A DNA stretch of 46,010 bases, filler included, from Jimgerdemannia flammicorona (Eukaryota), in assembly GCA_003990765.1 (NCBI GenBank). It is 2 parts of 2 records of this genome, joined end to end, with 100 filler letters (N's around TTAATTAATTAA, not from the genome) between each part and the next. Parts side by side here need not be neighbours in the genome. Positions count along the whole stretch, not along the records: positions 23,061 to 46,010 come from RBNJ01001179.1; 1 more part is not named here. One strand, written 5' to 3'. Position 1 is the stretch's first letter. Every line of letters begins with the position of its first letter. Shown one piece after another: positions 8,426 to 46,010 of the stretch. Below the pieces are notes generated by a model. The model made no database searches. It was given only the letters and a program-made list of their open reading frames with translations, and was not told the DNA's origin. The position numbers were made by a program, and so were the translations under genes.

Positions 8426-8555
8426 CTTCTTCATCATCACTGTCCTCTAGGAGGGCTGGTGGTTCATCATCTTCCTCTTTCTCTTCTTCCCTGATCTGTT
8501 TTTCGAGAGCTTTCTGGCTTCTTTCCTGGTAGATCTTCCTGGTTCTGATGGTGCA

Positions 8556-9320: not shown

Positions 9321-9616
9321 GTCTTGGTCTTGCGAAGCTTCTTTTCTTTTTCTTCTTCACTGGCTGGAGTGGTTCCTCAGATGATATCTTGAACTGCTTG
9401 CTCCAGCTTGATATCTTGGTCCATCTCTTCAGCTTGGCTTTCTGTGTCAGTTTCCATCTGCTTTTCCACTGGGTTCTTCTTGGGTCTTCCTGGTGGTCTC
9501 TTATAGGGTTCTTTGTGAACATCCTTCTTGGTGGTCTGAGCAGGATAGGCCTCCCATTCTTCTTCGTCAGATTCTCCGATTTCTTCAAAGGTGATTGTAT
9601 TGGCCTGCTCCTTATT

Positions 9617-10474: not shown

Positions 10475-10588
10475 CTTGTCTGGGTATTGGGGCTCGGTTT
10501 GTATGGTTGTTCGGGTAGTGGTGGTTGTTCGTTATTCAGCTTGAAAGTGAGGGATTCATCTTGAATCACCAGCCAATGGGCACCAAGT

Positions 10589-11064
10589 TGTAATATAGCA
10601 GATGCTTACTCTTGAAAGTATATCAGATTTCTGTATCTTAAAAACTTGACTGTTCTGACTCTCGCAGAGTCTCTTGAAGTGGCAGGGGAGGGTGAGTGAG
10701 TTCAAAGTGTATCTGCCTGCAGGCTTACTAGTTCCTTTGCTATCTCTTTGCTTTGAACTATTTCGATCTGAGGTTTATTCACTCGAAGATACTGGGTTAT
10801 TTATACAAGTTTGCTAGCTATGCGAAGGTGGCTAAGTAATAAATGAGTCATTTGGACTTTGTTGAAACATTTGGACAATGTCTAAATGCTATACTAAATC
10901 AGGGTATTCGATTTGGATAATGTCCAAAATTTAGACAATGTCTAAGAATTTAGACAATGTTGAAATCGAGGACTGCTAACTATAATGCTATACTACTTTG
11001 GGAATGGGTGCGATCAAGTGTCTATTCCCTATTTCCTTCTTCCAAATCTGGCTGTACCGTCACA
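10589..11064 (-). repeat. 5' LTR of element B
   Basis: Direct repeat of 4337-4812, followed on minus by the PBS. Confidence 0.95.
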
Positions 11065-15812: not shown

Positions 15813-15845
15813 AGACTGATTGACAACAAAACATATTTCATCATT

Positions 15846-18800
15846 ATGAACAGTACAACCAACATTTTCTCTTTAAACATGAATGGGTTATGGGGTGCTT
15901 CTCGATGTAGGAACATTTTTACTTAGATGAAGGGATTGAAGGCCAATCTCTTCCTCTTGCAGGATGTCCGGTGTGAAGATGACTCTGATAGGATAGAATG
16001 GACAAAGGAATGGGGAGGTGTAGCAATTTGGAAGGGCAAGGTTGGAATTTTGGTTAGGAAAGGCAGAGGGGAGATACAGAATATGAGGAGCTGGGGGGAG
16101 AGACTGGTCTAGGGAGAGTAGATTCAGGCAGACTGGGGGCCAGTTATGGTTGGCTCCTGCTACTGCCCTGCGGTACGGGGTGAGAGAGTAGATTGGGTGA
16201 GAGGCTTACAGAAGAGTGGATTACTTGCAGAGGCTGGGGTGGATATGCTTGGAGGAGATTTCAATATGGTTTGGGACTTACTGTTGGATAGAACAGATGG
16301 AGGACGAGGTGCTGAGAGCAGGAGTGGAGGTCTGGTGGCTTGGGAGAAAGTAAAAAGACTAAGTGCACTAGTAGATGCTAGAAGAGAGTACTGGGGGAAT
16401 AGGAGGGTTTATACACATTGGGTAGGGGGTCTGGGGACTAGAATCGACTGGATTTTGATGGCCAGCTGCTGGGGCCTAGATGTTTGGAAGTTGCTGGAGG
16501 TGGAATGGTGTCCATAGTCGGATTACTGGGGGCTTTTGGGACAGGGGTGCTTTGGGGGAAGTGGGGATGGGCCTGGACATTGGTGCCTCAATTTCTCTTT
16601 GTTAGATGACAAGACCCAGTAGGATGAGTGGGCTAAAGACATTCAGCTGAGGGTAGAGAACTGGAGGCAGGAAGGGGCCTCAGTTGGGACTTGGTAGATG
16701 AGGATGAAGGAAATGGCCAAGATTTATTGGAGGGAGGCTGGTAAGGAGGCAGGGAAGCAGCAAAAGCAAAGAGTGTATTGGGCCTCCGCTAGATTGACAA
16801 GGCTCCTGGAGGAGTGGGCAAGGCTGACAATGTTGGAGGGAGAAGCAGATTGGCGATTAATGATGGCGAAAATGGAGGTTGGGGAACTTCAACAGGTGCT
16901 GCGGGAGGAGGAAGAGGCAAGGGTATAGAGCTTGGCAGCGCATCTTTGCTGGCAGGATCTGGAGGAAGGAGAGAGGCCTTCCAAGCTTCTTACAAGGGCC
17001 CTTAGGGTGAGACGGGTACAGTAATGGTGGGAAGGAGTATTGGACTCTGACAGGGTACTGGTGCATGGTGTACAGGATATTCTTGGATCGCTGAAGGAGA
17101 GATAGAGTGGATTGTGGAGTGAGGAGGAGGGTGGGGCAGATGCCGATATAATTGAACAAATATTGGAAGATTGGCACCCACCACAAGTTGAAGGGCTAGG
17201 GGATCTGGTGATGCCTGTATAAGAGGATGAGATTCACCAGGTTCTTGCTGCGACAATGCCAGATATGGCACCTGGGGAGGATGGTCTGCCCTGGGACTTT
17301 TGGAAGCGAATGGTTGGAGTCCCAGGGGTAATGAGAGAGATGACAGTATTGTGCGACCTTATTCTACAGACAGAGAGGTGGGTGGGGGAGCAGGACCTTG
17401 GGCTGGTGACACTGCTTTACAAAAACAAAGGAAGGTGGGAGGATTGGAAGAACTGGCAGCCAATAATGTTGCTAGATATGGACAGGAAGTTGGTAACTAA
17501 GGTGGTGGTGGCAAGACTACAGAAGGTGGCCCAGCAAGTCATGGGTGTTGAGCAGAGGGGATTTGTGGGTGGTTGGCTCATCAGGGATGGTACTGCCTAG
17601 GTACATGGCATTATCGAAGGGGCAAGAGCCTGTGGACTGGATGGGCAGCTAGTTTTCTTGGACCAGGAGAAGGCATATGACCAAGTGTGAAGAGTCTGGC
17701 TGGTGAAAGTTTTGGATAGAATGGGGGTTCTGCATCAATTCTGGTCAGCAATGGTCAGCCTACTGGAAGGGAGTAGGGCTGCCCTCATATGTAATGGACA
17801 TAGAGGGGTAGTGTTCCCGTTGGATAGAGGGGTGCCCCAGGGGGACCCATTGTCCCCCATTTTGTATACTCTTTCCCTGGAACCCCTTATGGATAGAATT
17901 AGACAGCAGATAGAGGGGCTCTCTGTCTTTGGCATAGGATGGAAAGTTGGGGCCTTTTCTGATGACATGGTAGTTGGTTTGAGTTCAATTGCTGATGTTG
18001 AGGAGCTCAAGAAGACTGTAGAGTAGTATGAGGAGTACTCTGGAGCTAAGTTGAATTGGCATAAGTGTGAAACAATGGTGCTAGGCAATGGCCTGGTGGG
18101 AGGGGAAGTTATAGGAATAATTGTCCCCACCAGTGAAGCAGTGCAGTACTTAGGTATCTACTTGTCAGTCTATGGGTCAGTTCTGCCCAGGCTTTGGTGA
18201 GAGCAGAGGATTGGAATCTGGGAGGAGGTCTTGCAGAGTTGGGGGGGAAGACATTTTTCTCTGGCAGGGAGGATCTTGATTTTGAATGTCTACTGGCTGC
18301 CAAAGTTGTGGTACCTGGTGTATCATCTGGACTTCCCAGCCTGGGTGGTGAAGAGATTGATAAAGTTGGTGAAGAGATGGATTTGGGCTGGCAGGCAGAG
18401 TCAGATTAGTTGGGAGACCTTGTCCCTACCAGTGGCAAGAGGCGGTCTTGGGCTGGTTGACTTTCCAAAATAGTTATACTGCTTGCGAGCATGGTGGCTG
18501 AAGAGAGCAGTGGAGCTGAGAGGAGGTGGATGGGTTCCTCTGCTACAGAAGATTTGGGAGAGGGGGGCATCGCCAAGGGGCTCAACTGGTAATCTCCTCT
18601 CCTTAGTTGGGCTTCAGAACACTGGACAACTACGATATAAAGGATTTTGGTGGGGGATTGCAGAAGGGGTGCACTGCATTGGTATTCACTGGCAGGGGAA
18701 TGAAGGGGAGGAGGATTGGGACCTGGCAATGTAGAGATGAGATCGTATACTGCTGGATGGCACTCCTTTAATTAAGTTCGACATTGGGGATGGAATGGAA

Positions 18801-19502
18801 TGCCAAAGGGGACCAAGTCAGGATCTGTGGCCTAGTGGTTGGCAAGGAGTTGGAATTGGTGAGGAGTGGAACTGGCATGGTGTGTAGACCTGGAGTACTA
18901 CAGTGAGAACATAGCTGCCGCCAAAATACTGTGTGGTCTGGTGGTGCATGCTGCAGAGGAATATTATGCTCAACTTTCACTCGGGGCACCTTGTAGTAGG
19001 GGGTTGCTTCGACTGTGAGGAGTGTCATAATGTAGGGCAGGTGGGGGGTTATGTACAGACACCAGAACATTGGCTAGGAGAGTGTGAGGTGTTGGGGGAT
19101 TTTTGGCAGACAATTGGGGATCGCTTGGGGGTATGGGGTAGGGGTGATGAAGTATGGGGGAGGTGGGAGGACTTGAGAGATAGATTGGTAGGGGGGATAG
19201 GGAAGGAGTGGCTTACTTTGGGTTGGGCTTTAGCTATTTGGGTAGGGCTGGCCAGTCATTGACTATTTGTTTTTGAGGATAGGAGGAGACAGAATTTGGA
19301 GGACTGGTTGCTGTGGTGGCATAGGCTTATGGAAGACACCTTAACAGGCTGGTGGCTGGGTTGGGGGATGTGGGGTGGTCGGAAGCACCATTTAGTGGAG
19401 AAAATCTGTGAGCAAAGTGGGGGGAGAGTTGGGGTAGTTGGTGAAAGAGTGATTTTCATTCGTGAGGAGGTAGGGAGGGGCCCCCCTGTGGGGATTGGAT
19501 AG
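15846..19502 (+). pseudogene. LINE C ORF2 (APE endonuclease, RT, C-terminal Cys/His motif)
   Basis: FSLNMNGL, LLQD, LGGDFN, RIDWI; APGEDGL, GVPQGDPLSP, FSDD; CFDCEEC..TPEHWLGEC. Confidence 0.92.
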
Positions 19503-19613
19503 TGGGTAGGAATGATGTATATTTATTCATAGACTGGTAATAAAGGTGGAGTCCAAGTGACTATAAAAAACAAAAAAAAAAAAAAAAAAAAAAAAAAAGA
19601 GACAATGTGGCCA

Positions 19614-20830
19614 AGGTATTTGACTTGTTCCTTGAAGAATTCACACTTCTTGAGCTTAGCATAAAGCTTGTGTTTTCGCAGGATCTCTAGAACTATTTGA
19701 ATGTATTTGAGGTGTTCTTCTTTAGTTGCACTAAAGATCAGGATGTCATCAAGATATATCAACAGGAAAATAAATAATTGGTTCTTGAATATCTTATTCA
19801 TCAGAGTCTAAAATGTGGTGGGTGCATTGGTGAGACTAAATGCTAAGACCAGGAATTCATAGAGTCCAAAGAAGGTCATGAACACAGTCTTGGGAATGTC
19901 TTCTGGCTTGATTCAGATCTGGTGGTATTCTGATATAAGGTCTAACTTAGTGAAGTACTTGGCATTCTTGAGAGCATCAAAGATTTGATCAATCAAGAGT
20001 AATGAGTAGCAGTTCTTGACAGTGAGTTTGTTGAGTATACAATAGTCTATGTATATTTACAGGGTATCATTCTTCTTCTTGATGAATAAGACTGGTGAGC
20101 CATAAGGAGATTTGCTTGGCTAGATGGCTCCTCATGCAAGTAGTTCTTCTAGTTCCTTCTTAACTACTTCAATTTCAAGTAGCAAAATGTGGTATATATG
20201 TTTCTTGAGTAGTACAGCTCCTGGGCTCAGTTCAATTTCATGATCAACTTCTTGTATAGGTGGTAGACCAGGTAGCTTGTCTGGAAAGACATCCTTAAAT
20301 TCCTCTAGCAATAGCTTGATGCTTTTATTGACTGATAGTCTCTTGTCTTGTTTCTTGGGATGGATCATTACAACAAAGATATGTATTGCCTTCTTAAGTA
20401 CTTTCTTGTACTGTATAGCTGACAGTATTGCAATCTGGGTCTTGCTCATAGTCTTGTCTGTCTTGATCATAATGTTGGCTCCATCTTGAAGTAAGGTAAC
20501 TTCATTCTTATATCAATCAATGTCTGAGTTGTGTTTCATAAGTCAGGGTTTTTCTAAGATCAGATTATGATCTCCTAGTAGTGCAACTTCAAAGTCTACT
20601 CATTTCCAATATTTTTGGATCTTGATGGGCAGTTTGGTGGCAATTGACTCAATGGAGTGCAGAGTACCATCTGCAGTGACTATACTATTGTTCTTGGGTA
20701 CAGACTTAGTAAGGATCTTGAGGCTTTCAATGAGATTCTAGTTGATGAAGTTCCCTGCAGCTCCACTATCTATGAGTACTTGAACTTCTTTTTCTTTGAC
20801 TAGGCCTTTGAAAATGAGCATAGCTTGAGC
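19614..20830 (-). pseudogene. Element A protease and RT N-terminus
   Basis: VLIDSGAAGNFIN, FKDVFPDKLPGLPP, IYLDDILIFS. Confidence 0.9.
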
Positions 20831-22960: not shown

Positions 22961-23060
22961 NNNNNNNNNNNNNNNNNNNNNNNNNNNNNNNNNNNNNNNN
23001 NNNNTTAATTAATTAANNNNNNNNNNNNNNNNNNNNNNNNNNNNNNNNNNNNNNNNNNNN
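22961..23060. other. Assembly gap with TTAATTAATTAA spacer
   Basis: N runs flanking a palindromic linker with stops in all frames. Confidence 0.95.
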
Positions 23061-24283: not shown

Positions 24284-26347
24284 TGTAAGAGGGTTGCTTT
24301 TTAGGGTAACCATTATGTAGTTCTGGAAGGGTTTTCTGGAAGTTCTGGATATTCTGGAAGACTGTTTTCTTATGGTCAAGATCAATTTCATATAGAGTAT
24401 GTCCTCTATGCTTATTGATTTCAAGATCGAGTTGACGTCTCAACCAAAGTCCTTTTTTGGACTAGTTCTGGATGTTCAGGATTTTCTATATTTCAGGAAG
24501 TTTAAGAAACTAAGACCAGCTTAGTTGAATTGGCATATCACTGCAAACAATACCCAATTAGGAAATTTCATGACGGGGTTAGGAGTGGGACCTAACAGAG
24601 AGTGGATTTACTTAAGAGTAGTTTGTGGGTTATTAAATAAGTTTATTCGCTATTCATAATATTGCTATACTAGGAGTATTTGTATAAAGGGATATTGTGG
24701 GGAAGTGCTCAGGAGTTGTGTTTGAATTGTTCAGGTCTGAGATTCTGAGGTCTGGGAGAGGGGGTATTTATACTAGTGAGGGCTATCTGGGCTATGCTGA
24801 ATATGGATGTAGTACTAAGTGCCTTGCTGAGTTGGAATATAGTCACATAGTACAAGTGTAATCTGATATGTCAAGAGATTGTCTGACTGCTGAGTCAGTT
24901 CACAGTTACGTCATATAAGGCTAATCTAACTATACTATGACTGCTAAGTTATTTATAGGTTTAGACACTGTCTGGGTAGTCTTCAATGACATCACCATTG
25001 ATGATATCATCTCTGATGAAGTAGTCATCTAGGAAAAATAGTTCACGGATTACTTCTCCTTGTTCGCTGAGGTAATAATACATTGGAACTTCATCACTAT
25101 CCCACAGGATAGCATCATCTGTCTCATATGCTGGATAAGGTATTGGTGGGCAAAAGAGTGGTGCATTGTCTTTGCTTTTATCAGATTCGCTGTCTACATA
25201 CCTTCTGTAGGTTACAGCACTATGAGTCATGGGATTGTAGTATGCTGGTGGCTGTGGTTCATATTGCTCATACTCGGGTGGTGGGGTGGTTGGTTCGATC
25301 TCGAGGGTTGTCTGAAGGTACAGGTTGTGTTCTCTGGTTTCTTCATTGTAGTTGAAGTAATCGGGGGTAAATACGGATTGGTATTCATGCTAGTGATCAT
25401 TGTCCCAGTAAGTCTCATAGGTAGTTATGAACTACTGTAAGTTCATTAGCAAAGTTGGCGGTGTGATCAGGGTTGGTAGAGATCCTTGGCTTGAGGTCAT
25501 GTCAGTATCAGAGGGATCATTGTCTTCTGCTTCATCTTCATCAAACCGGATTATATCGTAGATGTCCTTCATAGTATATCCAACTTGGAGCATTTGTAAG
25601 ATATGATCATTGGGGTGTGGGAAGGTTCTGTCTGTGGTTTCAATATATTCAAGATACTTGTAGTTGAGTTCTTGTATCATGTCATCGATTTGGCCATAGG
25701 ATAGGGTAGCAACCATTTCAGCTGTAGTAACTTGGAGGTAGGGAATAATACTGCTATATTCATAAAAGAGTTCTCGGTGTTTGCGGGTGATGAGCTTCTG
25801 GTGTTGAGACATCTGGGTAATGTCTATATTGTGGTGATGTTTGACCATGTCTTCCAGGAGGCAGCTGATCTGGTAGTAGCTTGAGATTTATCCGATTCAG
25901 TGAGCCTCGCTAAGCATGTTCAGAGCATTCCATCGGGCTTCCACAAAGTAGAGGGGTGCTAGGCTATGGATATTCATGAGGGGCAGAGGGAGTGTGGCTT
26001 GGTTGACAATGGCATTCCAAATGTCAGCGTGGATATGGGTGTAGATCTTGGTAGTCATGTTTGTGTGTTTTGGAAGTTGTGGTTGTTGTTTGTTTTGGTT
26101 CTCTGTTTTGATGCATCTCAATGCTCGGTATATATATATTTGGTCCTGATTGGTAAGATTCTGTTTGTGTGAATCTTATGTTCTGTGACTTTGTATTGAC
26201 TCAGCTTTGTATGCTGTGACTTCAGTTTGACTCAACTTTGTGATCAAACAGATGATTTCCAGATTTGTTCAGGGGTCGCGTGTGATTTCAGTGGCTTGTT
26301 CAGAGGGTGACGTGTAATTTCGGTGGCTTAGAGGTTGTGTGCTTACA
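24284..26347 (-). repeat. 3' LTR of element D
   Basis: TGTAAG..CTTACA; colinear with 32715-34778 at offset 8431. Confidence 0.95.
24961..26058 (-). pseudogene. LTR-encoded ~365-aa accessory protein, copy 1
   Basis: Track ORFs 25897-26121, 25432-25848 and 24961-25230 share one frame; stops are C>T/G>A-type and several are sense codons in the other LTR; TATA at ~26129-26140. Confidence 0.8.
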
Positions 26348-28200: not shown

Positions 28201-30230
28201 GCTTCTTTATCATCAGCGCATACTGTGATAATTTGTTCCATGATGGAGTTTGTAACTAAGGTGAGAGTTTGGATAACTTCTTCAATAGGTGGTCTGGAGA
28301 TTGCATCAGCAACAATATTTTCCTTGCTAGGGCGGTATTGGATTTCATAATCAAAGTTGGTGAGGACTTTCATCCATCTGGCTTGCTTTCGAGAAAGGGT
28401 AGCCTGAGTCTTGATGTTGACTAATGACTTGTGGTCAGTCAATACAGTAAAGTGTGCTCCTTCTAGATATGGTCACCATTTGATCAGAGTATCTACAATG
28501 GCTAGCATTTCCTTCTCATGAATTGTATAGTTAATTTCAGTATCATTGAACTTGTGGGAATGATAGGCCACAGGGTGTCCTTCTTGTATGAGTACTGCTC
28601 CAAGAGCTAGGTTAGAGGCATCAGTAGTAACTTCATATGGTAGGGCAGGATTTGCCGCTTGAAGTACTGGAGTGGTTATCAGGGCATCTTTCAGTACTTG
28701 AAAGGTGGTATCTTATTCAGGTCTCCAAGTTACAAGATTGTTGAAGTCTTTCTCTTGTTTTATGGTCCAGGGTTGTTCTTGTTTCTTACTGTACTTGGTC
28801 ATTTGAGTGAAGGTGGTAGTGATTTTAGCAAAGTTGGCAACAAATTGCCTGTAATAGTTTGCTAATCCCAAGAATGACTGGAGGTCTTTCAGCTTCTTGG
28901 GTCTGGGCCAATCTTTGATTGTAGAGATTTTGCTGGGGTCCACTTTGATTCTATTTGGGGTGACAATGTGTCCAAGAAATTGAATTTCTTTCAGGAGAAA
29001 TTTGCACTTGCTGAGTTTTGCAAAGAGTCAGTTTTCTCGGAGTTTCAGTAGTACTAGTTCAAGGTGTTCAAGATGTTCCTCCAGGATTTTGCTGAAGACT
29101 AGGATGTCATCAATATAGACAATAACAAATTTGTCCAGGTATGGGTGCAGGATAGTATTCATCAAGGTCTGGAAGGTTGCAGGAGCATTAGTTAGGCCAA
29201 AGGACATAACGAGGAACTCGAAGTATCCATAGTGAGTTCGGAAGGCTGTCTTGTAGATGTCTTCTTCTTTCATGGCAATTTGCCAGTAACCATTTCGCAG
29301 ATCAAAAGAGCTCATGAATTGTGGGTTAGTGAGCCTATCGAATATTTCATCGATTCTTGGTAGTGGGCAACAGTTTTTGATGGTTTGTTCATTGAGGTCA
29401 TGATAATCAATGTACATTTGCAGGTCTCCTCCTTTCTTGACAACAAAGAGGACTGGTGTACCATAGGGTGATACACTGGGTCTGATGAATTCTTGTTCTA
29501 GGAGTTCATTGATTTCCTTCTTGAGTGCATCAATTTCTCTCAGAGACATGTGGTAGATTGACTTGAAGGCTGGCTTGGCATCTGGGATGGTCTTGATGGC
29601 ATGGTCTACTGCTTGTTTAGGAGGTAGGCCTTTTGGAAGCTTCTTTGGGAATATGTCTCGAAATTTCTGGAGTAGTGGTCTGATATGGCTGTCAACTTTG
29701 GAAAAGTCTTCTTCAGAGTTCTCAGGTTCTCCTTTGGATGGATGGATGGAGATGGTGAAGAGAGGGTATTTCTTGGCCAATTTCTTAAGTTGTAACTTGT
29801 TGATATGAGTAATCTTTGGTCCAGAGTCACTAGAGTTAAGTGGGTCCTTTTCACCTTGCAGTTTGAAGTTGTGGTGTCCTTTCTTGATGGTCAGAGAATG
29901 GTTTACCCAATTGATCATAGGGTTCTCTTATTTTAACCATGGAGTCCCAAGGATGATTTCATTGTCAGGAAGTGGTATGATTTGGAGGGTAATATGTACT
30001 CGGTAGTCGCTGATTCGGAAGGGTAGATTGCAGACTTCTTTGCTAATAACATGTGAGATTCCATCAGCTGTAGCAACTGCTTGAGTTTATTGTACTGGAG
30101 AGGTAAAGACCTTAAGTCTGTTGGCTGTTTCTTTATTGATGAAGTTGCCTGAGACACCACTGTCTATCATAATCTTGACAGGTGCTCAGTTGATAAAAGC
30201 TTTAAGTGTAAGCAGTTTGTCTGATCCAAT
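28200..30230 (-). pseudogene. Element D protease, RT and RNase H
   Basis: [50 protein letters not shown]. Confidence 0.93.
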
Positions 30231-32714: not shown

Positions 32715-34778
32715 TTTAAGAGGGTTGCTTTTTAGGGTAACTGTTACATAGTTCTGGAAGGGTTTTCTGGAAGTTCTGGATATTCTGGAAGACTGTTTTC
32801 TTATAGTCAAGATCAATTTTATATAGAGTACATCCTCTACACTTATTGATTTCAAGATTGGATTGATGTCTCAACCAAAGTCCTTTTTTAGACTAGTTCT
32901 AGATGTTCAGGATTTTTCGTATTTCAGGAAGTTCAAGAAACTAAGACCAGCTTAGTTGAATTGGTGTATTGCTGCAGACAATACCCAATTAGGAAATTTC
33001 ATGATGGGGTTAGGAGTGGGACCTAACAGGGAGCAGATTTACTTAAGAGTGGTTTGTGGGTTATTAAATAGGTTTATTCGCTATTCATAATATTGCTATA
33101 CTAGGAGTATTTGTATGAAGGGATATTGTGGGGAAGTGCTCAGGAGTTGTGTTTGAATTGTTCAGGTCTGAGATTCTGAGGTCTGGGGGAGGGGGTATTT
33201 ATACTAGTGAGGGCTATCTGGGCTATGCTGAATATGGATGTAGCACTAAGTGCCTTGCTGAGTCAGAATGCAGTCATATAGTACAAGTGTGATCTGACAT
33301 GTCAAGAGATCGTCTGACTGCTGAGTCAGTTCACAGTCATGTCGTACAAGGCTAATCTAACTATACTATGACTGCTAAGTTATTTATAGGTTTAGATACT
33401 GTCTGGGTAGTCTTCGATGACATCACCATCAATGACATTATCTCTGATGAAGTAGTCATCTAGGAAAAGTGATTCACGAATTACTTCTCCTTATTCGCTG
33501 AGGTAATAATATATTGGAACTTCATCACTGTTCCACAGGATAGCATCATCTGTCTCATATGCTGGATAAGGTGTTGGTGGGCGAAGGAGTGGTACATTGT
33601 CTTCACTTTTGTCAGATTCACTGTCTGCATACCTTCTGTAGGTTATAGCACTATGAGTTGTGGGATTGTAGTATGCTGGTGGCTGTAGTTCATGTCACTC
33701 GTACTCAGATGGTAGGGTAGTTGGTTCGATCTCGAGGGTTGTCTGAAGGTACAGGTTGTGTTCTCTGGTTTCTTCATTGTAGTTGAAGTAATCGGGGGTG
33801 AATGCAGGTTGGTATTTATACCAGTGATCATTGTCCCAGTAAGTCTCATAGGTAGTTATGAACTACTGTAAGTTCATTGGCAAAGTTGGTAGTATTATCA
33901 GGGTTGGTAGAGATCCTTGGCTTGAGGTCATGTCAGTGTCAGAGGGATCATTGTCTTCTGCTTCATCTTCATTGAACTGGATTATATCGTAGATGTCCTT
34001 CATAGCATATCTGACTTGGGGCATTTGCAGGATATAATTGTTGGGGTGTGGGAAGGTTCTGTCTGTGGTTTCAATGTATTCAAGATACTTGTGGTTGAGT
34101 TCTTGTATCATGTTGTCGATTTGGCTGTAAGACAGGGTAGTAACCATTTCGGCTATAGTAACTCAGAGGCGGGGAATAACACTGCTATACTCATAGAAGA
34201 GTTCTCGGTATTTGCAGGCAATGAGCTTCTGGTGTTGAGACATCTGGGTAATATCTGTATCATGGTGGTGTTCAACCATGTCTTCCAGGAGGCGGCCGAT
34301 CTGGTAGTAGCTTGAGATTTGTCCGATTTAGTGGGCCTCGCTAAGCATGTTCAGAGCATTCCATCAGGCTTCTACAAAGTAGAGGAGTGCTAGGCTATGG
34401 ATATTTATGAGGGGTAGAGGGGGTGTGGCTCAGTTGACAATGGCATTCCAAATGTCAGCATGGATATGGATGTAGATCTCAGTGGTCATGTTTGTGTGTT
34501 TTAGAAGTTGTAGTTGTTGTTTGTTTTGGTTCTCTGTTTTGATATGTCTTGGTGCTCAGTATATATATATTTGGTCCTGATTGGTAAGATTCCATTTGTA
34601 TGAATCTTGTATTCTGTGACTTTGTATTGACTCAGCTTTGTGTACTGTGACTTCGGTTTGACTCAGCTTCATGATCGAGCAGGTGATTTCCAGATTTGTT
34701 CAGGGGTCACGTGTGATTTCAGTGGCTTGTTCAGAGAGTGACATGTAATTTCAATGGCTTGGAGGTTGTGTGCTTACA
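32715..34778 (-). repeat. 5' LTR of element D
   Basis: Direct repeat of 24284-26347; terminal TG mutated to TT; PBS adjacent. Confidence 0.95.
33392..34489 (-). pseudogene. LTR-encoded ~365-aa accessory protein, copy 2
   Basis: Same ATG and stop positions as copy 1 at offset 8431, with a partly different set of mutational stops. Confidence 0.8.
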
Positions 34779-37700
34779 AGCCCCTTGACCACCTAGGTTG
34801 GGAAATCCAAATGATATCCCACATACTATAGCTTTGGTATCCAATACACATTCAGCACCATCACCCTTCTGGCTAAGGACATATGCCGACCACTCCATCA
34901 CAGTAGAACATTTCCTCACTCCAGAAGTTGATGGTCCCACCATGCATGGGGAAGAAGAGATCTGAACACTAAGAAGTAGATCTCCAAATAACATACTGAT
35001 TCACTAGCCAGTACCACTGTCCCAATTATATCGCCACTAACAATTCTAGTACCCAGCACCAGAGTCTCACATTTGTGCCAGTTTAGTTTAGCACCAGAAC
35101 CCCTCTCATACTATTCCACAGACCTCTGTAACTCCCCCACATCCATCAAGGAGCCCAGCCTGACCACTATATCATCAGCAAAGACCCCCACCTTCCAATT
35201 AATCTCTAAAATGTTCAAATCCCCAATCTGATGCCAAATTCTATCTAGTAGAGGCTCCAAGGAGAGGGCATACAATATGGGCAACAAGGGGTCCCCTTGT
35301 GGTACCCCACATCTCAGGAGAAAGGTCATCCCCCTGTAGCCATTGATGACCAATGCTGTCTGACTGTCCTCCAAGAGACTGATCAATGATCCTTAGAACC
35401 CTGGGGGGATACCAATCCATTTCAGTACTCCCTCTAGCCAGATCCTCCACACTCTATCATATACCTTCTCTTGATCCAGAAATACCAATTGGCCATCCAC
35501 CCCTATTGCCCGGGCACCTTCAATCACTCTATATACCCAAGCTGTCCCATCACAAATCAACTGGCCACCAACAAACCCACACTGCTCTACACTAAGCACC
35601 TGCTGAGCAATTCCTTGCAGCCTCATCACTAAGATCTTTGTCACCAGTTTGCAGTCCATGTCGAGAAGCATGATTGGCTGCTAGTTCTTTCAGTCTTCTT
35701 GCCTCCTCTTATTCTTGTAGAGCAAGGAGACTAGCCCTAGGCACTGTCCCCCAATCCAAGCACCAGACTGAAGGACCCCATCATACATAGCAGTCATTTC
35801 CTTTAGCACCTTGCCCACCCCAGCCATCTTCTGCCAAAAATCCCAGGGAAGTCCATCCTCTCCTGGAGCTATCCCCTTACTCATTAAGGCCACAACCTTG
35901 CAAATTTCCTCTCCACTCACCGGGTCCCCCAAAGTCCCTAGGCCCATCGCAGGGTTCGGGTACCAATCTCCCAGCTGCCTTTCAATGTCTAAAGCATCCA
36001 CTCCTCCATCCTCCTTACTCCATAGATTCTCCCAACTAGTTCTTAATAAGCTCAGAATCACCAGAGTCCCCACCACTAGCTTGCCATTCACATCCAGAAC
36101 TCCCTCTCACCACTGCTTCATTTGTTATACTTATAACAACTGCAACAAAAACCTAGTAGGCCTCTCTCCCTCCTCAAGCCCCTGCCACTGCAGTTGGGCC
36201 ACTATTCCCTGCAGCTTCACCTCCTCCTCTCTTTATAACACTCCTTTAAGCTCCTCCACCTCCTTCTGGATTCTCACAATATGCCAATCAGTCACCTCCC
36301 CATCTTCCAGCATACCTGCCTATCTCTCCATGAGTGCTGCCAGATGCCATGAGATCCACAGCACCCTCTGCCTTTGCTGGGCACACCTTTCTTTCCCTGC
36401 TTCCCTCCAATATATCTGAGCATTCACCTTCAGTCTCCTCCAGTGGTCCCCAATCCCAAGGCCCTGTTCCTGCCACCTTCTGATATTCCCAACAACCTCT
36501 GCTTCCCAACCCTCCCACAAAACCCTATCCTCCAATAAGGAAGAATTTAGCTGCCAATGTCCAGGTCTATCCTTACTTCCCCCAAACCTCTTCCCTCCAA
36601 GCAGCCCCCAGTGATCAGACCATGGGCACTAAACTACTTCCAGTGCTAACCAGACATCTGCTCCCCAATACTCTGCTGTCAAAACCCAGTCAATCCTGGA
36701 GCCCAGCCCTGCTGCCCAGTGGGTGTACACCCACTGATTGGCCCAAAAATGTCTTCCTGAGTCTACTAAAGAACTCAACCTCTCTGTCTTCAGCCAGTCA
36801 CCCAACCCACCACTTTCACCCCACATGCCTCTCCCTCCATCTGTTCTATCCATCTCCTTATCCCATACCATGTTAAATCACCCCCCATACAGTTCAGCCC
36901 AACCTCTCCCAATATACCAGCCTCTTTCAACCTGCGAATCCAGTCCACCCTCTCCCCTCTCTCAGCTGGGCAGTAATAAGACCCAACCATCAATGAGCCC
37001 CAACCAGGCCTCTTTCATATTCCCTACACCACCCAAGACCCCCAATGTCCAATGCTCTCAATGTCCCCCATCCCTTTCTGAATGAGAATACCCACTTTCC
37101 CCCTCCATACTACTGCCCCCCCCCCATTCCTTAGTCCAATCCTGCAAATCCACATCTGCCTCATAATGAACATCCTGTAACAAGAAGAGGTCCACATCCA
37201 GTCCCTTAAGCCATCCAAATATATACTTCCTCCTAGCTATCCCCTGTAACCCATTAACGTTCAAAGAGAATATCCTAGTTATACTGTTCATATTGAAAGA
37301 ATGTTGCAATAGAGACCCTAGCCTAGAATTCTATGCTCATCTCATCCCCAGCCAGATCTAAGTGCTGTTCAGCTTCCAAGTCACCCTCTGCATTAGCCTG
37401 AGTATCCAGTGCCTCCAAGATTTCCTGACATTCCACCCCATCCACTACCTCTATCTCCAACCAGTAATCTAAGCAGAATGCGCATCACTTCTCCAGTCCC
37501 TTTCTCGAGTTCCACAAGAATAGTGCCCTGTTACTCACAATCCTCCTAAGTTCCTCCTCTCTCTGATCATCGACTTAATATTCAACCAACTCCAGGAGAA
37601 CAGTCAGGATCTCATTCCTCATCTTCCTCAGTACCTCCTCCCCCTATAGGATCTCCTCCCAATGCCTCTCTTCCATCACCCTGAAATCCTCACCCCCCAG

Positions 37701-39289
37701 CTCTTCAGTTCCAGGGTCTTCCACATCCACTTCTCCTCATCCACCACCTCCACCACACCCTGAGCGATTTGTCCCCCATCTACCTCGGGGTCCACCAGTG
37801 TACTCCTCCTAACTGACTCATCCCACTCCTCATCTAGTACATCCAGCAGCTCCTCCTCTCCCTCCACTTCATACAGGACACTATACTGGGGGTACACACC
37901 TTTGCTCATATCCACATCTACCACCATATTGCCTTCTCTCTCCTCCTCTACTCCCATCTGAGTCCCACTCCAGGCCCTTTCCCCCCCCTCAGCCCAGGTG
38001 CTCTTCTGCAATCCCACAACCCCCTCCCCTAAGCTTCCACTAGCCCTACTCCCACCCAACCTTGCCAGCAGCTCCTTCTGGATTTTTCTCCCCTGCATCT
38101 TCTCCTAGGCCCCCTTCTCTATCCAGACCCTCTTCCCATCCACCTCTCCCACCACCATCCTGGCCTCAAACTCCTTCTATGCCAATCTCCTCCTTGCAAC
38201 CACCCCTTCCAGATCCTCCAGAGCCTCCAACAGGTCTTCCTCCTCTTCCTGGATTCCCTTCACCCTCGTGACCTTGTACTCCACTAGTCTCCACCTCAGT
38301 ATTGCTGGCCAGTCCCTCGACTTCCCCATACTCTCCCTTCCAGCCAGCCTCACCCTAACATCGACATCACCAGTCCAAAGCTCCATACCCTCCCAGACCT
38401 TGAACCCAACATCTACAATCTCTCCATACTCTCTGATCACCTCCACAACCAACTCCCTGGTCCTCTCCTTCGATACCATAGGGAGATCCAACACTGTCAA
38501 CTGCACCACTCGGGGATCCCAGTGCATACACCTGGCCATAGGGACTACAACCCTGCCAACTGTCACCCCCTTCTCCAAGGCCACCAGCAAGGCATCTTTC
38601 TCCTCAAACCCCACCTCGACCTCTTCCTTCCTCTTCAAAAACTTCACTGATGCTGCCTCCTTTGCCTCCTATGCTACCAGCCCCAAAATTATCCTTACCA
38701 TCACCGCCAAGCCCCAGAAACACATTGTGACCACGAATTCCGACCTCGACTTCTTGAGTAATGGGGCCAACACCATGCCCATCACTCCATCTGCCAGGTC
38801 CCCGGGCCTCGTGCCCACACCCTGTCCTGAATTATCAACTGCTGTCACATCTGGATTTTTTGCCAGATTCCCAGTCACAGCCCCATCACCAGTCACATCT
38901 CCAGCCCCTACTCCTGCTCCTCCCCTACCATCAGAAACTCTCTTGGGTACACCTCCCTGTCTCCTAGCAGTAGCTGTCGATGCCTTCCCTAGGCCCAGCC
39001 AACCATCTAGATCTGAGACCATCTTCTCCATTCTGACCTTATCAGCAAAGATCAACCTCTCCCCTCCTCTCTGTCTCAGACTGTCCCTCTCTCCACCACC
39101 AGGACCTCAGCTAGCCATTGAAGCCCCCAGCATCCCCAAACCATCTCCCCTCCTCCCCAGTCACCCCCCTGGCCAGTACGCTCACCAGTTCGATTATTGC
39201 CATCTATGTCGATAGTCATCAGATACCAAAAACATAGTAAAAAGTATTGTCTGAGTCTTGTATCACCTGAATGTTACTGGTGAAAGATG

Positions 39290-40523
39290 TTGTCTACCTC
39301 CTACATTCTTGGGACCTCTCCCACAGCCCTTTATCAATATAGACCTACTTCCCATCAACAATCTCCAGGTGGGTTGACTCTACAAATACCTTCCAAGCCT
39401 TCACTCTCTGTTCTACCACACCACTCAACTCCTTCAGTATCTCTAACAAGTCCTCTTCCTCCTCCTCACTCTCCTTCACCCTTGTCACCTTACATATGAA
39501 AACTCTCCACACTATTACTGAAGGCCAGTTCTGAGCCTTTCTAGTAGTCTCTCTTCTAGCCAACTGAATCCAGATATCAACATCTCCTATCCAGAAGAAG
39601 ATTTCTTCCCACACCCTGAATTCTATATTAACTACCTCCCCATATCCAGTCATAACTTTCTCTACTCTCCTTCTCATCTCTACTGTGGTTACCATAGGAA
39701 CTTCTTTTACCAGGAGCTGCACCACTCTGGGATCTCACCTCAGACAGTATGCCATCAGTATATATACCTCCCCAACTGTCAACCCAGCCTTCAACATATC
39801 CTCCAATAGCCCAGTCTCCTCAAAGCCCACCTCCACCCCTTCTAGGCCCCTCAGGAACTTAATAGATACTGCACCATCTATCTGCTTTGTGATCAGCCCC
39901 AGGACTATCTTTGTTATCACTGCTAAGTCCTGGAAGCACAAAGTGACTACAAACTCTGAAATTAACTTCTTGAGTAATAGGGCCACTGCTAGTTCCATTA
40001 CACTATCAGCCAGGTCACTAAGCCTCATGTCCTTCCTACAACTCAGTCCACCATCAGTAGTCCCATCTAAATTTTTTTCCAGATCACCCATCATACTCTC
40101 ATCAGCAATCACTCCCTTAGCCACTATACTGCCAGCCCCCCTACTCTGGCCACCCAGTGAGGCTCCCCCTGGCTACTGCTGCTCTACATTCTTTACTGTC
40201 TCCTTGCTCCTCCTCAGTCAGTCCTCCAGTCTAGTCACTGGCTGTCTTCCCTTCACCTTATCTATGAAGCTCACCCTCCTGATCTCCTGCCCTCTAATAC
40301 TGCTCTCTCTTCTTCTTTGTCTGCCTGCCAGCAAGCCTCTTATGCTTCTCCCCAAGCCCAGATCCCTCCTCACATACTGCCAATTGAACACACTTGGGCC
40401 ACCCTACCCTGTATACACCTCAGAACACTCATTACTCACTATGTTACTAGTATCATTTCTCCAAAAACTATATTATGAATATTGTCAGAAAGTTGTATAA
40501 CCTGAATATTACCAGAGAAAGAT
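39290..40523 (-). mobile_element. LINE F: 5' UTR and first part of ORF1 of a LINE C-family copy, interrupted by LINE E
   Basis: ORF1 fragments closely match C (DLEKNLDG, DLADSVMEL, VQLLVKEVPMV); 5' motif ATCTTTCTCTGGTAATATTCAGG. Confidence 0.88.
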
Positions 40524-40582: not shown

Positions 40583-41842
40583 TGTTAACTCTATATAACT
40601 ATAACTATAAGTAGTGATATCTTTAAAATCAGGATTTTCTCATATAACTAGTATATGTCCTAATTACAGTAACACATCATATATTCTACTAGGAAGTGTG
40701 ATCAAATTAGAGTCATACTAGACAGGTGAATAAGTATAAATACCTAAGACAAGAATATACTGTAACCCTTATCTCTCTCTCTTCTCTCTAAAGAAAAGAC
40801 AAGATAAGAATATCTGCTATCTGCCACTAAACTGTCCATTATAGCCAGCCCCTCTCAAGCCAGGTTGACTGCTTCTTTGGACACATCCAGGTTGCCCTCT
40901 AAGGAAGAAACCACCACTCTGAGGCCCTTAACCTCTCCAGCCAGGACCTAGGATATTATGTCCTCAACTACTATAAAGTTATTGAAAGGGCCTATCTTGC
41001 TACTAGCTGTCTAGAAATCTAGTATAAATATAAAATCAGCCATCAACTTCTTCAATGTGCAAATGGCCTATCCACTGATCAAGTCTCAGACTGGACTAAC
41101 TTAGATAGGCATGAGCAAAGACTAGCTAAGAAGGTCTATCAAATCATGCACCATGCACTTTTTGCAATATCCAATCTCAACTATATATAACTAAAGAACT
41201 TTCAGAACCTCTCCTTTTCGGAGGTTGATGAGCTGGGTCCAAGAAGCCAACTTCTAGATTACTCTCAAGTCTACTGACTGTGAACCCTACTGGAGCTCTC
41301 TCCTGAATAACAACCCAGACCAATGGCTCTAAGATCTCTCTGACCTCTTTAAAGGACCACTCATTTAAATGGATATCCTTAGACATAAGAATCAAGAACT
41401 CAACTTGGATAGTTCTAATTATATTAGATAGAGAACCCTTACTCTAATGTATATACCAGTGCAAGAACTATTTGCAGACCTTATTGACTTCTTCATCCTA
41501 AATATCAAGCCATCAGCAACCACCCTTCTAGTCACTGAAGAAGAAGACAATAATACTGAGAAAGATTCTCCACCTTTCTCTCTCCTGGTTCTCAATTTCT
41601 GAATTAACAAGAATGTTGATTTCTAAGGAAGAAAGGATGTAATAGAGTGAACAGATGAGACATGACATATAAATGAGTGAACAGATGAGACACAACATGT
41701 GATGATGAAAGATTATATGATCTGACAATGATGTTATCAATGATTGAGTATGATATATGATATTTCAAATGATAAATATAACAAATGATATAAATAATAT
41801 GAAAAATGATATCTAGCTTATTCTTAGCAATCAGTGCTGCAG
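40583..41842 (+). mobile_element. LTR relic carrying an accessory-family ORF
   Basis: TGTTA start, TATAAATA at ~40735, then a degenerate ORF; same layout as the D LTR; truncated by the D-family LTR at 41843. Confidence 0.55.
40810..41625 (+). pseudogene. Accessory-family ORF relic (HTH-like core)
   Basis: ALNLSSQDLGYYVLNYY..YKISHQLLQ..STDQVSDWTNLDRHEQRLAKKVYQIM..AISNLNYI*LKNFQNLSFSEVDEL, then YWSSLLNNNPDQW after a frameshift; presumed ATG now ATA. Confidence 0.72.
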
Positions 41843-42560
41843 TATAAGAGGGTTACTTGTTAGAGTAACCATTACATAGTTCTGAAAGGGTTTTCTGGAT
41901 GTTCTGGAAGATTATTTTCTTAAGGTCAAGATTAATTTCATATAGAGTATGTCCTCTACACTTATTGATTTTAAGATCAAGTTGATGTCTCAATCAAAGT
42001 TCTTTTTCAAACTAGTTCTGGATGTTCAGGATTTTCTATATTTCAGGAAGTTTAAGAAACTAAGACCAGCTTAGTTGAATTGGTATATTACTATAGACAA
42101 TATCTGATTAAGAAATTTCATGATAGAGTTAGGAGTAAGACCTAATAGGGAGTGGATTTACTTAAGAGTAGTTTGTGGGTTATTAAATAAGTTTATTCAC
42201 TATTTATGATATTGCTATACTAGGAGTAGTTGTATAAGGATATTGAGGAAATATTCAGAAGTTGTGTTTGAAATATTCTATATATTCAAGTCTGAGATTC
42301 TGAGGTTTAGAGGAGGGGGTATTTATACTAATAGAAGGCTATCTGGACTATACTAAATATGGATATAGTACTTAGTGCCTTACTGAGTCAGAATGTAGTC
42401 ATATAGTATAAGTGTGATCTGATATGTCAAGAGATCATCTGACTGCTGAGTCAGTTCACAGTTATATCATACAATGCTAATCTAACTATACTAATAACTG
42501 CTGAGCTATCTATAGATTTAGATACTATCTGGATAGTCTTCAATGACATCACTATTGATA
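41843..42560 (-). mobile_element. Truncated older copy of the element D LTR
   Basis: Aligns to ~24284-25000 with many more transitions. Confidence 0.92.
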
Positions 42561-42563: not shown

Positions 42564-43754
42564 TCCTTTCTCCACTACCTTATCGGTCACAGGGTTTGGT
42601 AGGCAATCTTCCGAGTCCCCTTTCCCCTATTATTACCCCCCTACCTCAGGTTGGTTTGCTGTGCCTGCATGGACATGGTGGGAGGAGAGCAATGGTGATG
42701 AGTTGCTCCTTTATCAGTATCAGATCAGTGTCTTCTCTACTTTTTTGTAGTTTCTGGTATCTTTGGCTGTATCTGGAGTGTATCCATTTTAGTATGGTGC
42801 CTTCTTCCTTTTGCTATTGCCAATAAGGTACTGTCTTGGTGTGTCTCAGGCTACATAGGGAGTCAGCCAACCTTGGGCATCAAGTGCTCAGTATAGGTTA
42901 CCTGCAGGTTTTTGGAGTCTGTGGTGGGGCCCTCTGGCTTTAGTGAGCTTCCCAGCAAGCACAGTTCTGGCATAGATGACTGTTTTTCAGGTGTTATCGG
43001 GATGGAAGGAGAGATGGCCATCACAGATAGGAGGATGGGTGATAATGGTGAACCAGTGAAGTGCCAGGCTGGGGGCAGTCATTGGGGCTGGGGCAGACAA
43101 TATTTTAGTGGGGCCTTTCGATTGGCTAGTAGGGGGTGGAGTGGTGCAGGGGCCAGCATCCTAGCTGTACCCAACTGGAACCAGGAGCTGATGTGACAAT
43201 ACGATCAAGGCCTGCAGGCTTGGGGAGTGGGACCTTCCTCATTTAGCAGTACCCAACTGGAACTGGGAGCTGATACAGCAATGTGATCAAGGCCTGCAGG
43301 CTCAGAGAGTAGGAGTGGGGTCTTTTCTGGCCCTAGCCCATGTGTAAGTCCTTTGTGGAAAGTTCTGTATGTAAGTCTTTTACTCACCTGCTTTGAATCC
43401 ACTTTGCTCTCTGTTGGTTAGTTGGGGGGTTTTTTCTTTACCTCAGGCTTTCTTTTGGGATTCAGGGGGCTATTTTTTATTCAGTCCCAGTGCTGCTAGA
43501 TCTGACACATAGGTGTGCTCTCATGTATAAATGATGATCTAGCTCTGGTGAGCAGACAAGTCTGGTCTATATCATGAGGGTCAATATAGCCAGTGTTTAA
43601 CAGACATAGCTGGAGTGGTGGGACTACTGGACAATTTAGTAGCCTAGGTTAATGAGGGAATATTGTTTGGTGGGTAGTAGGGGAGGGTTTTGGCCTATAT
43701 AGTCTAGGTTCCCTTCCAATAAAAATCTGTGGGACTATGAGTCCATTAAAAAAA

Positions 43755-43772
<18 letters not shown>
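42564..43772 (+). mobile_element. Repeat X: ~1.2-kb polyadenylated, probably non-autonomous retroposon
   Basis: Second copy at 1-280; internal ~82-bp tandem duplication at 43165-43325; AATAAA at 43718, hairpin 43732-43744, poly(A) 43748-43772. No TSD seen. Confidence 0.6.
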
Positions 43773-43803
<31 letters not shown>

Positions 43804-43846
43804 AAAAAGTCCTAAGAATTGATCAATATATATATATATATATATA
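43773..43846. repeat. (TA)n microsatellites
   Basis: Two TA runs directly visible. Confidence 0.9.
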
Positions 43847-45224
43847 CTCTATTTATCTATATTACTACTATATTATCTATATTATTTTGTAAACTTCAAA
43901 ATCCCTTTTTACAGCTAAATCAGTCTACCTCAGTAACAAGAATTGTTTTTATAATAAAGAGAAAACCAACCTTCTTGTCCAACTTTGTTTCTTCAAAAGA
44001 TGAATAAAACATTGTGCGGGACGTCAGTGCGGCCACATTCCCCGCTCGCTCCTCGAGCTGCTCGGCGAAAGTCACCTGCCCCTCGCAACTACATTGTGGC
44101 AACCATCATTCGACATTTGTGCCTAATTCACAAACATAAATGAAGCGATCTGTCGCCCAGAAAAGTCGGATTTGTGTGTGGCGGCCGCACTTGACGCGTC
44201 CAAATTTCTACGCTTTCGCGGCATTCCTACGTAGTTTAGTTAGCAAAGGAGCAGAGAAAATGTATAAATATGAGAATTATCTCAGTGAATTCGGAAAAAG
44301 AACGCGTGCAACCATAGCCAAGATCGAAACAACAGCTTCATTTTCAAACGCCCTGCGACGCTTAACGAATTCACTAGAAAATTGAGTACCCAAAAGTTTC
44401 TGGCGTTGGGCGTTAGCCTGTCTTAGGTGGGGTTTGTTTCACACTGAGGCGTTAGCCTGCCTTGGGCGTTGGTTTGTTTCAGGGGCTAGAACGTCACAAA
44501 CTAACGTTGCATTTCGCTCTACGCTCTACGAACGTATTTCGCTCTACGAACGCATTTTGAAGTCCCCTCCATTTCTCTCATCATTTAATATATAATTATC
44601 TAAATTATTTAACGGGTTCCCTCCCCGTATTCTATGACTACCAACCATTGTCTCCACCCCTACCATCGAATCCTTGCGCATGATGCATGAATGTGTCAGT
44701 CACGGGTGTACCCATACACTGAAACGCATGAATGGCGCATGGGGAACCAATCACTCTCTACCAACCGTCATCCCCATATCCCATCATTATCGTATTTATT
44801 CATTCCCTTCTCTTTTCATTTCTATTAACAATTTACTATCGTCGCTATCTAAAAGTTGAGTATAATGTCCGATATGGTTTGCTCACAAGAAAGCTTACTT
44901 ATTTCGAAAGACGAACTTCCCTTCGGGGGTACCTCGGCCTAAATGTCCGTAGATGATGCCTTGGCCTACAGCTTGTAGATACGGCGTAGGTTCGGATGCT
45001 GGAGTACCAGATCCCACCCAAGATAAGTCCAAGGAGAGTGCCATGGCGAGGACCGTTACTCCCGTGATAGGTGGGCACTATAAACATATAACGCTGGGTG
45101 GCACGGGAGACAGGCAGCAAGATATCAACGGTCCATGGCGGAAGTAGATTTTCTTTCCCAACATATTATGTGAGTAGGCTGGCACACAAACCCCACCCTA
45201 GTACCGCTGCATTTGTTTCCTGCT

Positions 45225-45289
45225 AACAGCCGGTCTGGGCAGCCCTAGCCCACTGATGAGGCCCTTTGGCTAGGGCCGAAACCGATGTT
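45225..45289 (+). ncRNA. Type III hammerhead ribozyme
   Basis: GUC cleavage triplet 45233-45235; stem I TGGGC/GCCCA; core CTGATGA 45253-45259; stem II GGCCCT/AGGGCC; GAAA 45278-45281; stem III CGGT/ACCG extended by AACA/TGTT. Confidence 0.92.
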
Positions 45290-46010
45290 CTTGCCATTCG
45301 TAAATGAGCATAGTTTCCGTTGTCGCCAGGCACACGTTTTGGAATTGACGCGTCACGCGTCCCAATATGTATATATATAAATAGGATAGGCTGTCGAAAT
45401 AATGAAGTCCAGATTTGAACTTTGGAATTCAGGTAAAGTGCGTCGACGCTTCACTTAAGAGTTTACTAGCGAATCCGACTTTTTCAGACACTCGACCGCT
45501 CATCACACTCGGTCCGAAGACATGACCGCGTCCGAAGAATACCATAGGATGAGATAAGATGGCCTCTAAGTATATATATACAAGAAATCGCGCATATCGC
45601 ACATAAAAAACCGCCGCCATAGTACATAATATAGTTTTCCGACTCTCTACACCTCCTGTCACCACTGTCTCATCAATGCTACCAAATATTCTAACCATTA
45701 TAAAATATCTGAAGTAAGCTCTTTAATTATTATAAAGGATTTAAAATATCTAAAGTAAGCTCTCAGCTACAAAGATATATATATATATATATTTTATAGT
45801 ATAATATTTTCTTTATCCCTTTGACTGTTTTGCACCTATATTTAGAGGCAAGATTTTAAAAGTTTATAACTTTTAAAATCATAATAGTTTTTAAAAAAAA
45901 ATTTACCAATAATTTTTTATATAATAATTCTACCTTTGGTAAAAATTTTACAAAAAAATTTTTTTTTTTTTTTAAACAAATTGAGATATATTTTTAACAG
46001 AAAAACAATG

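Follow-up and report, generated by a model that had tools for sequence, protein, structure and literature searches.

A monomeric type III hammerhead motif in an apparently young copy of a non-coding repeat family, possibly of the plant retrozyme kind

We asked whether the hammerhead-like sequence near the 3' end of a 46,010-nucleotide stretch of DNA (the window, meaning the whole stretch that was analysed) is an intact ribozyme motif, and what kind of element carries it. An Infernal search with the Rfam models, proposed as a check in the first-pass annotation, found a plus-strand Hammerhead_3 match of 39.1 bits that spans the full model (1-54 of 54). Its E value was 3e-7 on 301 nt, 2.1e-6 on 43900-46010 and 4.6e-5 over the whole window (both strands, 4227 Rfam families), where it was the sole match at E ≤ 1. 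The score is below the Rfam gathering score for this family (48.5 bits), and a default scan at gathering gives no match. We found that four type III hammerheads from environmental sequence, each with the canonical core, score 26-42 bits, likewise below gathering. Hence, the gathering threshold is conservative for this class. By arithmetic, dividing by the 4227 families and rescaling to 1 Gb, 39.1 bits still corresponds to E ~2e-4 for Hammerhead_3 alone.

The ribozyme core is complete (CUGAUGA, GAAA, GUC and the A15.1-U16.1 pair), and the layout is that of type III, in which loops close stems I and II and stem III is left open. At minimum free energy (MFE) the 65-mer folds into the three-stem hammerhead (-24.4 kcal/mol), with pair probabilities of 0.48-0.93 for stem III. 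This fold energy is unremarkable (z = -1.3; 22 of 200 shuffles were equally stable), and Infernal flagged two positions of outer stem III as non-canonical. The claim of an intact type III hammerhead with all core nucleotides and three stems was therefore confirmed by the sequence, by Infernal and by the MFE fold (Table 1). From the alignment, plus-strand transcripts are predicted to cut themselves between C45235 and U45236.

Table 1. Features of the hammerhead locus, in positions of the window
Feature	Position	Strand	Basis
CpG-intact non-coding island between AT-rich simple repeats	44000-45650		CpG observed/expected, ORF scan
Candidate insertion unit with TG...CA ends; CATAAA 6-bp repeat at 44135-44140 and 45602-45607	44141-45601		weak
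Block A, recurring; many diverged copies in X1 and X2; 3' third holds the ribozyme	44855-45367		contig depth
Sub-block at 95-99% identity in runs X4 (44943-45152) and X24 (44924-45133)	44924-45152		one contig per run
Type III hammerhead ribozyme motif	45228-45287	+	Rfam Hammerhead_3, full model
Ribozyme with extended stem III	45225-45289	+	MFE structure of 65-mer
Outer stem III, AACA/UGUU, 4 bp	45225-45228 / 45286-45289	+	beyond 2x1 internal loop
Stem III, 4 bp adjoining core	45231-45234 / 45281-45284	+	then 2x1 internal loop
Cleavage-site triplet GUC	45233-45235	+	sequence, alignment
Predicted self-cleavage site, after C17 (C45235) and before U45236	45235-45236	+	alignment to Hammerhead_3 consensus
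Stem I, UGGGC/GCCCA, 5 bp	45236-45240 / 45248-45252	+	
Loop 1, AGCCCUA	45241-45247	+	sequence
Competing helix, 9 bp, perfect: 45242-45250 (GCCCUAGCC) / 45268-45276 (GGCUAGGGC)	45242-45276	+	excludes stems I and II
Core CUGAUGA	45253-45259	+	
Stem II, GGCCCU/AGGGCC, 6 bp	45260-45265 / 45272-45277	+	
Loop 2, UUGGCU	45266-45271	+	sequence
Core GAAA	45278-45281	+	
Putative promoter-like stretch, CCAAT-like and TATA-like, 75 nt 3' of ribozyme	45362-45383	+	sequence only
Block B, recurring, holds a short variable tandem repeat	45482-45595		depth 71-326, joints, loose ends

Fast hammerhead cleavage at low Mg2+ needs a tertiary contact between loop I and loop II, and the locus had been described as having complementary kissing loops. 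We found that AGCC of loop 1 (45241-45244) can indeed pair with GGCU of loop 2 (45268-45271) over 4 bp. A Watson-Crick run of at least 4 arises by chance in 4% of random loop pairs of equal lengths and in 8.6% of shuffled pairs, and the match is weak evidence for kissing loops. In addition, a perfect 9-bp helix, which the first-pass annotation lacks, competes with stems I and II in another register that takes up parts of both, with pair probabilities in the isolated 65-mer of 0.29-0.57 versus 0.31-0.43 for the two stems; the best structure that contains it has -23.1 kcal/mol versus -24.4 kcal/mol for the hammerhead fold. The 4-bp match of the kissing-loop claim stands as a complementarity. The competing helix is predicted to form about as often as stems I and II. 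If it forms, this helix could lower ribozyme activity or could serve as a conformational switch.

Pattern scans for the ribozyme gave seven matches in viral_contigs and four in metagenome_contigs, all of them unlike the locus outside the ribozyme. Among these 11 loci (L001-L011), likeness was confined to the ribozyme itself (79-87% over 52-54 nt in three), with unrelated flanks. The four metagenome hammerheads were selected solely for sharing stem I and the core, and an equivalent 4-nt loop-loop run was present in all three that were correctly parsed (the fourth was mis-parsed); the run was found in none of the seven hammerheads from viral contigs. As a separate observation, the closely related type III hammerheads of metagenome contigs L008 (1266-1322, minus strand) and L011 (2997-3053, minus strand) keep their loop-loop pairing through a C-to-U change (AGCG/CGCU versus AGUG/CGCU). 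With block A itself as the query, a 24-mer had no match in viral_contigs, and a 20-mer had three matches in genome_contigs that extend over 20-22 bases only and were taken as chance.

Retention of CpGs at the ribozyme, also noted in the first pass, was borne out. The CpG observed/expected ratio is 1.21 and 1.05 in the two 1-kb bins of 44001-46000, versus 0.00-0.40 in 42 of the other 44 full bins; the remaining two bins have 0.60 (2001-3000) and 1.35 (3001-4000). The CpG-intact island is flanked by poly(A)/(TA)n at 43747-43850 and by AT-rich simple sequence from about 45650. It holds no ORF longer than 89 aa under the standard code and no convincing ORF under code 4, and apart from the hammerhead no Rfam match in 43900-46010 was better than E 3. 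A coding reading of the 64-aa plus-strand ORF at 44953-45147 was rejected, as it has no third-position bias (its 12 listed variants fall 5/4/3 at codon positions 3/2/1). A mitochondrial or mitovirus-like origin was likewise rejected, given no convincing code 4 ORF and no organellar RNA family.

The two halves of the island differ in predicted RNA structure. For 44850-45600 we obtained fold z-scores of -2.9 on the plus strand and -3.0 on the minus strand, with none of 20 dinucleotide shuffles as stable on either strand; the left half (44100-44850) has no excess stability (z = -0.27). The structured part is also the part shared with another organism (organism A, below). Within the window the island matches itself alone, with no second copy elsewhere.

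Boundaries of a possible insert were sought around the island and around block A. The unit at 44141-45601 has 0.18 chance matches expected, and 18 of 200 control placements also match; its right end coincides with the end of organism A coverage at about 45595, and its left 700 bases are nearly uncovered there. Around block A we found three candidates with TG..CA ends and a duplication, by estimate about the number expected by chance. The CCAAT-like and TATA-like stretch 3' of the ribozyme might act as a promoter, judging from its motifs, and a similar short motif pair occurs at 44194-44210 and 44260-44273. Just outside the island, 43700-43850 carries an AATAAA signal, then a 25-nt poly(A), then (TA)n, a pattern resembling the 3' terminus of a retroposed sequence that adjoins the island.

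The first-pass annotation had placed the ribozyme in unique DNA. We aligned assembled contigs from four public runs to 44000-45700 (1701 bases): two runs of organism A (X1 and X2, taken as RNA by guess only), a soil DNA run (X4) and a soil metatranscriptome (X24). No public run contains more than 14% of the sampled island words. In organism A, the contigs that align, at 85-100% identity, number 31 in X1 and 30 in X2; by identity band (99% and above, 95-99%, 90-95%, below 90%) there are 7, 9, 11 and 4 in X1 and 4, 10, 14 and 2 in X2. They concentrate on blocks A and B (44855-45367 and 45482-45595); summed contig depth in block A is 52-227 in the bins of 44855-45310 and 16-31 in 45311-45367. Coverage by the runs is absent from most of 44000-44680 and from 45368-45424, and we draw no conclusion from these gaps.

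These contigs are also rearranged. Seven distinct skip joints and one strand-switch joint are listed for organism A; one contig joins the last paired base of stem III (45284) straight to 45480 in block B, and another skip joint deletes 45163-45472, ribozyme included. Sequence unlike the locus continues beyond the alignment in 67% (X1) and 42% (X2) of the aligned contigs. Among the joints listed for the X1 and X2 contigs there is no back-joint that would suggest circular or tandem RNA, and for none of the four runs is a position listed at which molecules start or stop. An origin from organellar DNA was rejected on the many diverged copies within one run.

Within the ribozyme, variants are listed at two positions: C45231U leaves a G-U pair in place, and C45245U is a change in loop 1. 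In another copy, which is more diverged, a G-U pair preserves stem I and loop 1 is longer. Nine variant positions are listed for the 45 bases directly 3' of the ribozyme, in a table that leaves out eight further rows; that fewer variants are listed within the ribozyme than beside it is a hint of constraint. Of the 16 listed C>T and G>A differences, eight fall at CpG, and only 19% of Cs are in CpG. The relatives look like methylation-decayed versions of the sequence. Since CpG sites account for eight of these 16 listed differences, as in the decay of methylated repeats, the CpG-intact copy in the window looks comparatively young or unmethylated.

With about 30 contigs per run at 85-100% identity, internal deletions and CpG-type decay, the ribozyme-bearing block belongs to a multi-copy, mosaic repeat family, its multi-copy state being seen in organism A. 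Hence, the locus is not unique DNA: the earlier statement holds within the window, where there is no second copy, but about 750 bases around the ribozyme are multi-copy in organism A. Between the two origins first put forward, domestication of the ribozyme and an element that is young and so far unrecognised, the diverged copies in organism A and the CpG decay favour the second, and we found no support for domestication.

We judge it somewhat better than an even bet that the locus is a genomic type III hammerhead in monomeric form, of the kind found in plant retrozymes or their solo LTRs, in a young copy of a non-coding repeat family. A plus-strand transcript crossing 45228-45287 would then cut itself, leaving a 2',3'-cyclic phosphate on the upstream product and a 5'-OH on the downstream product. 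In full elements, two ribozymes would release a unit-length RNA that would be circularised and copied into DNA by a gypsy reverse transcriptase. Such release would need family members with two ribozymes, or tandem or circular templates; in the single-ribozyme copy found here, cleavage would only truncate a read-through transcript. Transcription, cleavage activity, a plant host and a life cycle of the retrozyme type are what we infer here.

Plant LTR retrozymes are recognised by two direct 300-400-bp LTRs with a hammerhead in each and cleavage sites 600-1000 nt apart. We found no second hammerhead with the Rfam models within 1 kb or elsewhere in the window, which ends 775 nt 3' of the cleavage site, in AT-rich simple sequence. 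Inside the island there is no LTR-like direct repeat (local alignment score of 20 versus a shuffle mean of 20.1), and no polypurine tract by LTRs was found for the insert. The tRNA-Met primer motif (12 nt) has three matches with at most two mismatches in the window, where 4.5 are expected, and none in 43900-46010. A solo LTR would be without a primer-binding site and a polypurine tract. The recurring block of ~490-510 bp exceeds the reported length of retrozyme LTRs (300-400 bp). It is non-coding, multi-copy and heterogeneous, as retrozymes are, with copy number and heterogeneity seen in the organism A runs. We therefore regard the insert as no more than a candidate retrozyme-type element.

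In the sections of the retrozyme survey by Cervera, Urbina and de la Pena (2016, PMC4918200) drawn on here, plant genomic hammerheads are mostly type III and most often isolated in 300-400-bp repeats read as solo LTRs. Retrozymes themselves are described there as LTR elements without coding capacity; they have a polypurine tract, a primer site for tRNA-Met and duplications of 4 bp, are mobilised by Ty3-gypsy elements and spread through circular RNA (PMC4918200). The retrozyme LTR promoter lies upstream of the ribozyme, according to part of a further paper (PMC9695139). Like the plant elements described in PMC4918200, the locus has a type III motif in a non-coding, heterogeneous, multi-copy repeat; as with their solo LTRs, the motif is monomeric, gypsy elements occur in the same genome and the surrounding RNA is predicted to fold stably. 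Unlike the retrozymes of that account (PMC4918200), the insert is without a second ribozyme, an LTR pair, a tRNA-Met site, a polypurine tract and a convincing 4-bp duplication. A further difference from plant retrozymes is that the resident gypsy element of the window is without the tRNA-Met motif at its primer site.

Other known systems resemble the locus in single respects. Penelope-like elements and metazoan retrozymes carry type I hammerheads, often minimal or dimeric, in 150-300 bp tandem repeats or in the terminal repeats of Penelope-like elements. As in those elements and in the metazoan non-LTR retrozymes, the hammerhead here is borne by a repeat family; unlike them, it is a monomeric type III motif outside any tandem array. 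No Penelope-type protein was found among the 13 window ORFs scanned, whose retroelement proteins are Ty3/gypsy only. The tie of eukaryotic hammerheads to Penelope-like elements or retrozymes, on which the first reading drew, is right in outline but misses isolated solo-LTR motifs, the commonest plant form in the sections of PMC4918200 drawn on here. Hammerheads of interspersed repeats also occur in a fungus and several animals, as one part of the survey by Perreault et al. (2011, PMC3088659) has it. Like the type III hammerheads with a loop I-loop II pseudoknot in that survey (PMC3088659), the motif allows four Watson-Crick loop pairs, and three environmental hammerheads with the same stem I (L008-L010) show the equivalent run; those pseudoknot hammerheads are mostly bacterial or phage, unlike the eukaryotic locus of the window.

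The window is eukaryotic, and no tRNAs were found in it. A Pfam family was assigned to seven of the 13 ORFs scanned, and the Ty3/gypsy domains among them are protease, dUTPase, reverse transcriptase (RT), zinc knuckle and integrase zinc-binding. One largely intact Ty3/gypsy element lies at 4337-11064 on the minus strand, with a dUTPase domain between protease and RT; its 476-bp LTRs (4337-4812 and 10589-11064) are 95.8% identical, with TG..CA ends and a CTAG duplication, and the tRNA-Met motif is absent from its primer-binding site. A search with the gag ORF matched two unnamed proteins. The RT ORF at 29028-29918 has thousands of relatives; among the best 120, every organism-named match is a plant, at 38-59% identity, including Tanacetum, Helianthus, Theobroma, Iris, Centaurea, Cucumis and Pinus taeda (by EukProt tag). 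This one RT search points, though not with certainty, to a plant or other green-lineage host that is not close to a sequenced angiosperm. Even the best plant RT matches do not exceed 59% identity, and most have 45-58%, so a eudicot host is improbable.

Other parts of the window have features of their own. The minus-strand ORF at 2858-3685 (275 aa) sits in the only other CpG-intact stretch (3001-4000); it has no homologue among 264 scored candidates and no Pfam family, a language model gave a weak hint to MIR or CFAP161-like domains, and it is possibly a host gene exon; these searches identified no host gene. Two blocks of ~50% GC have extreme and opposite GC skew (+0.42 to +0.46 in 14001-20000, -0.51 to -0.54 in 36001-40000). 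Parts of them, 14208-14876 and 39348-40016, are partly inverted copies (73% complementary), and their ORFs have no Pfam family except a weak DUF4238 match in ORF 39685-40500, below the curated cut-off. A repeat of ~700 bp or more occurs in three copies (24286-25002, 32717-33433 and 41836-42559; 76-100% identity), spaced 8431 and ~9120 bases apart; the copies probably represent either LTRs or one large tandem unit. Two stretches of 44 N each lie at 22961-23004 and 23017-23060.

Four other accounts of the locus were weighed against a retrozyme or solo-LTR origin. The one with most to be said for it, though we still hold it unlikely, is that the motif is an inactive relic or a chance look-alike whose active fold is blocked by the alternative helix or by the imperfect stem III. 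Its score is below gathering, its fold energy is unexceptional (z = -1.3), the 9-bp helix reaches a pair probability of 0.57 versus 0.41-0.43 for stems I and II, and a loop-loop match of only 4 bp has a 4-9% chance expectation; against it, all core nucleotides are intact at E 4.6e-5 over the window and all families, the two listed family variants within the motif are structure-neutral, and the four canonical environmental type III hammerheads also fall below gathering, at 26-42 bits. We give somewhat less credence to a domesticated, single-locus host ribozyme that processes a host non-coding RNA or an mRNA end. Processing of host RNA has been proposed for two type III hammerheads of Arabidopsis and for the intronic hammerheads of amniotes. 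The unmethylated CpG island would here be a transcription unit of its own, with the TATA-like box at 44260-44273 and with a 3' end formed by the ribozyme ~940 nt downstream. CpG ratios of 1.05-1.21 mark unmethylated non-repeat DNA in this window, where the other island has the gene-like ORF 2858-3685, and no second copy lies within the window; however, the ribozyme block has many diverged and rearranged copies in organism A with CpG-type decay, no gene is nearby (no ORF of the island exceeds 89 aa under the standard code), and the upstream half of the island, the would-be promoter, is nearly absent from the related contigs and has no excess fold stability. The Arabidopsis precedent, a monomeric, transcribed and self-cleaving type III hammerhead in the portion of PMC7761336 drawn on here, also speaks for a host ribozyme. 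The likeness to those loci extends to a DNA-encoded canonical motif in intergenic non-coding DNA, but they are described in that portion (PMC7761336) as low-copy, with transcription and cleavage shown, whereas the block here is multi-copy in a related organism and its ribozyme is known from sequence.

No more probable than domestication is a so far undescribed family, neither retrozyme LTR nor relic, of structured non-coding elements with one ribozyme each that lack both an LTR pair and a tRNA-Met primer site. Its host would be a non-angiosperm or no plant at all, and its 9-bp helix would switch between cleaving and non-cleaving states. Two forms of such a family are possible, an endogenised viroid-like RNA or an unmethylated non-coding RNA gene family whose 3' end would be made by the hammerhead. 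The least probable account, to which we assign only a small chance, makes the locus a retroviroid-like insertion: an exogenous circular RNA, viroid-like or satellite, would have been copied into DNA, and the locus would belong to no LTR-based retrotransposon family. Nearly all hammerheads of infectious circular RNAs have the type III architecture according to the relevant part of PMC13725137, the conserved part of the locus (~750 nt) is non-coding and more stable than shuffles on both strands, deletion variants are abundant in the organism A contigs, and no LTR, primer-binding site or convincing duplication was found. Such RNAs are recognised by ribozymes in both polarities, but no minus-strand Rfam ribozyme was found at E ≤ 10 in 43900-46010; nor was a circular or head-to-tail joint found in the contigs, and the many CpG-decayed copies point to a long stay as methylated genomic DNA.

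As a retrozyme or solo-LTR copy, the locus is an ordinary example of a known association and brings no new mechanism; it would carry greater weight if the family proved to be wholly without LTR architecture or the host not to be a plant. If the ribozyme is active, the locus adds a genomic type III hammerhead together with its carrier repeat, from a host with gypsy elements that have only distant relatives among sequenced seed plants. In the sections of PMC4918200 drawn on here, most known retrozymes come from eudicots, and monocots, ferns and algae contribute isolated cases. A census of the family in this lineage could date the association of ribozyme and retroelement. The same census could also tell whether single-ribozyme copies serve a function of their own.
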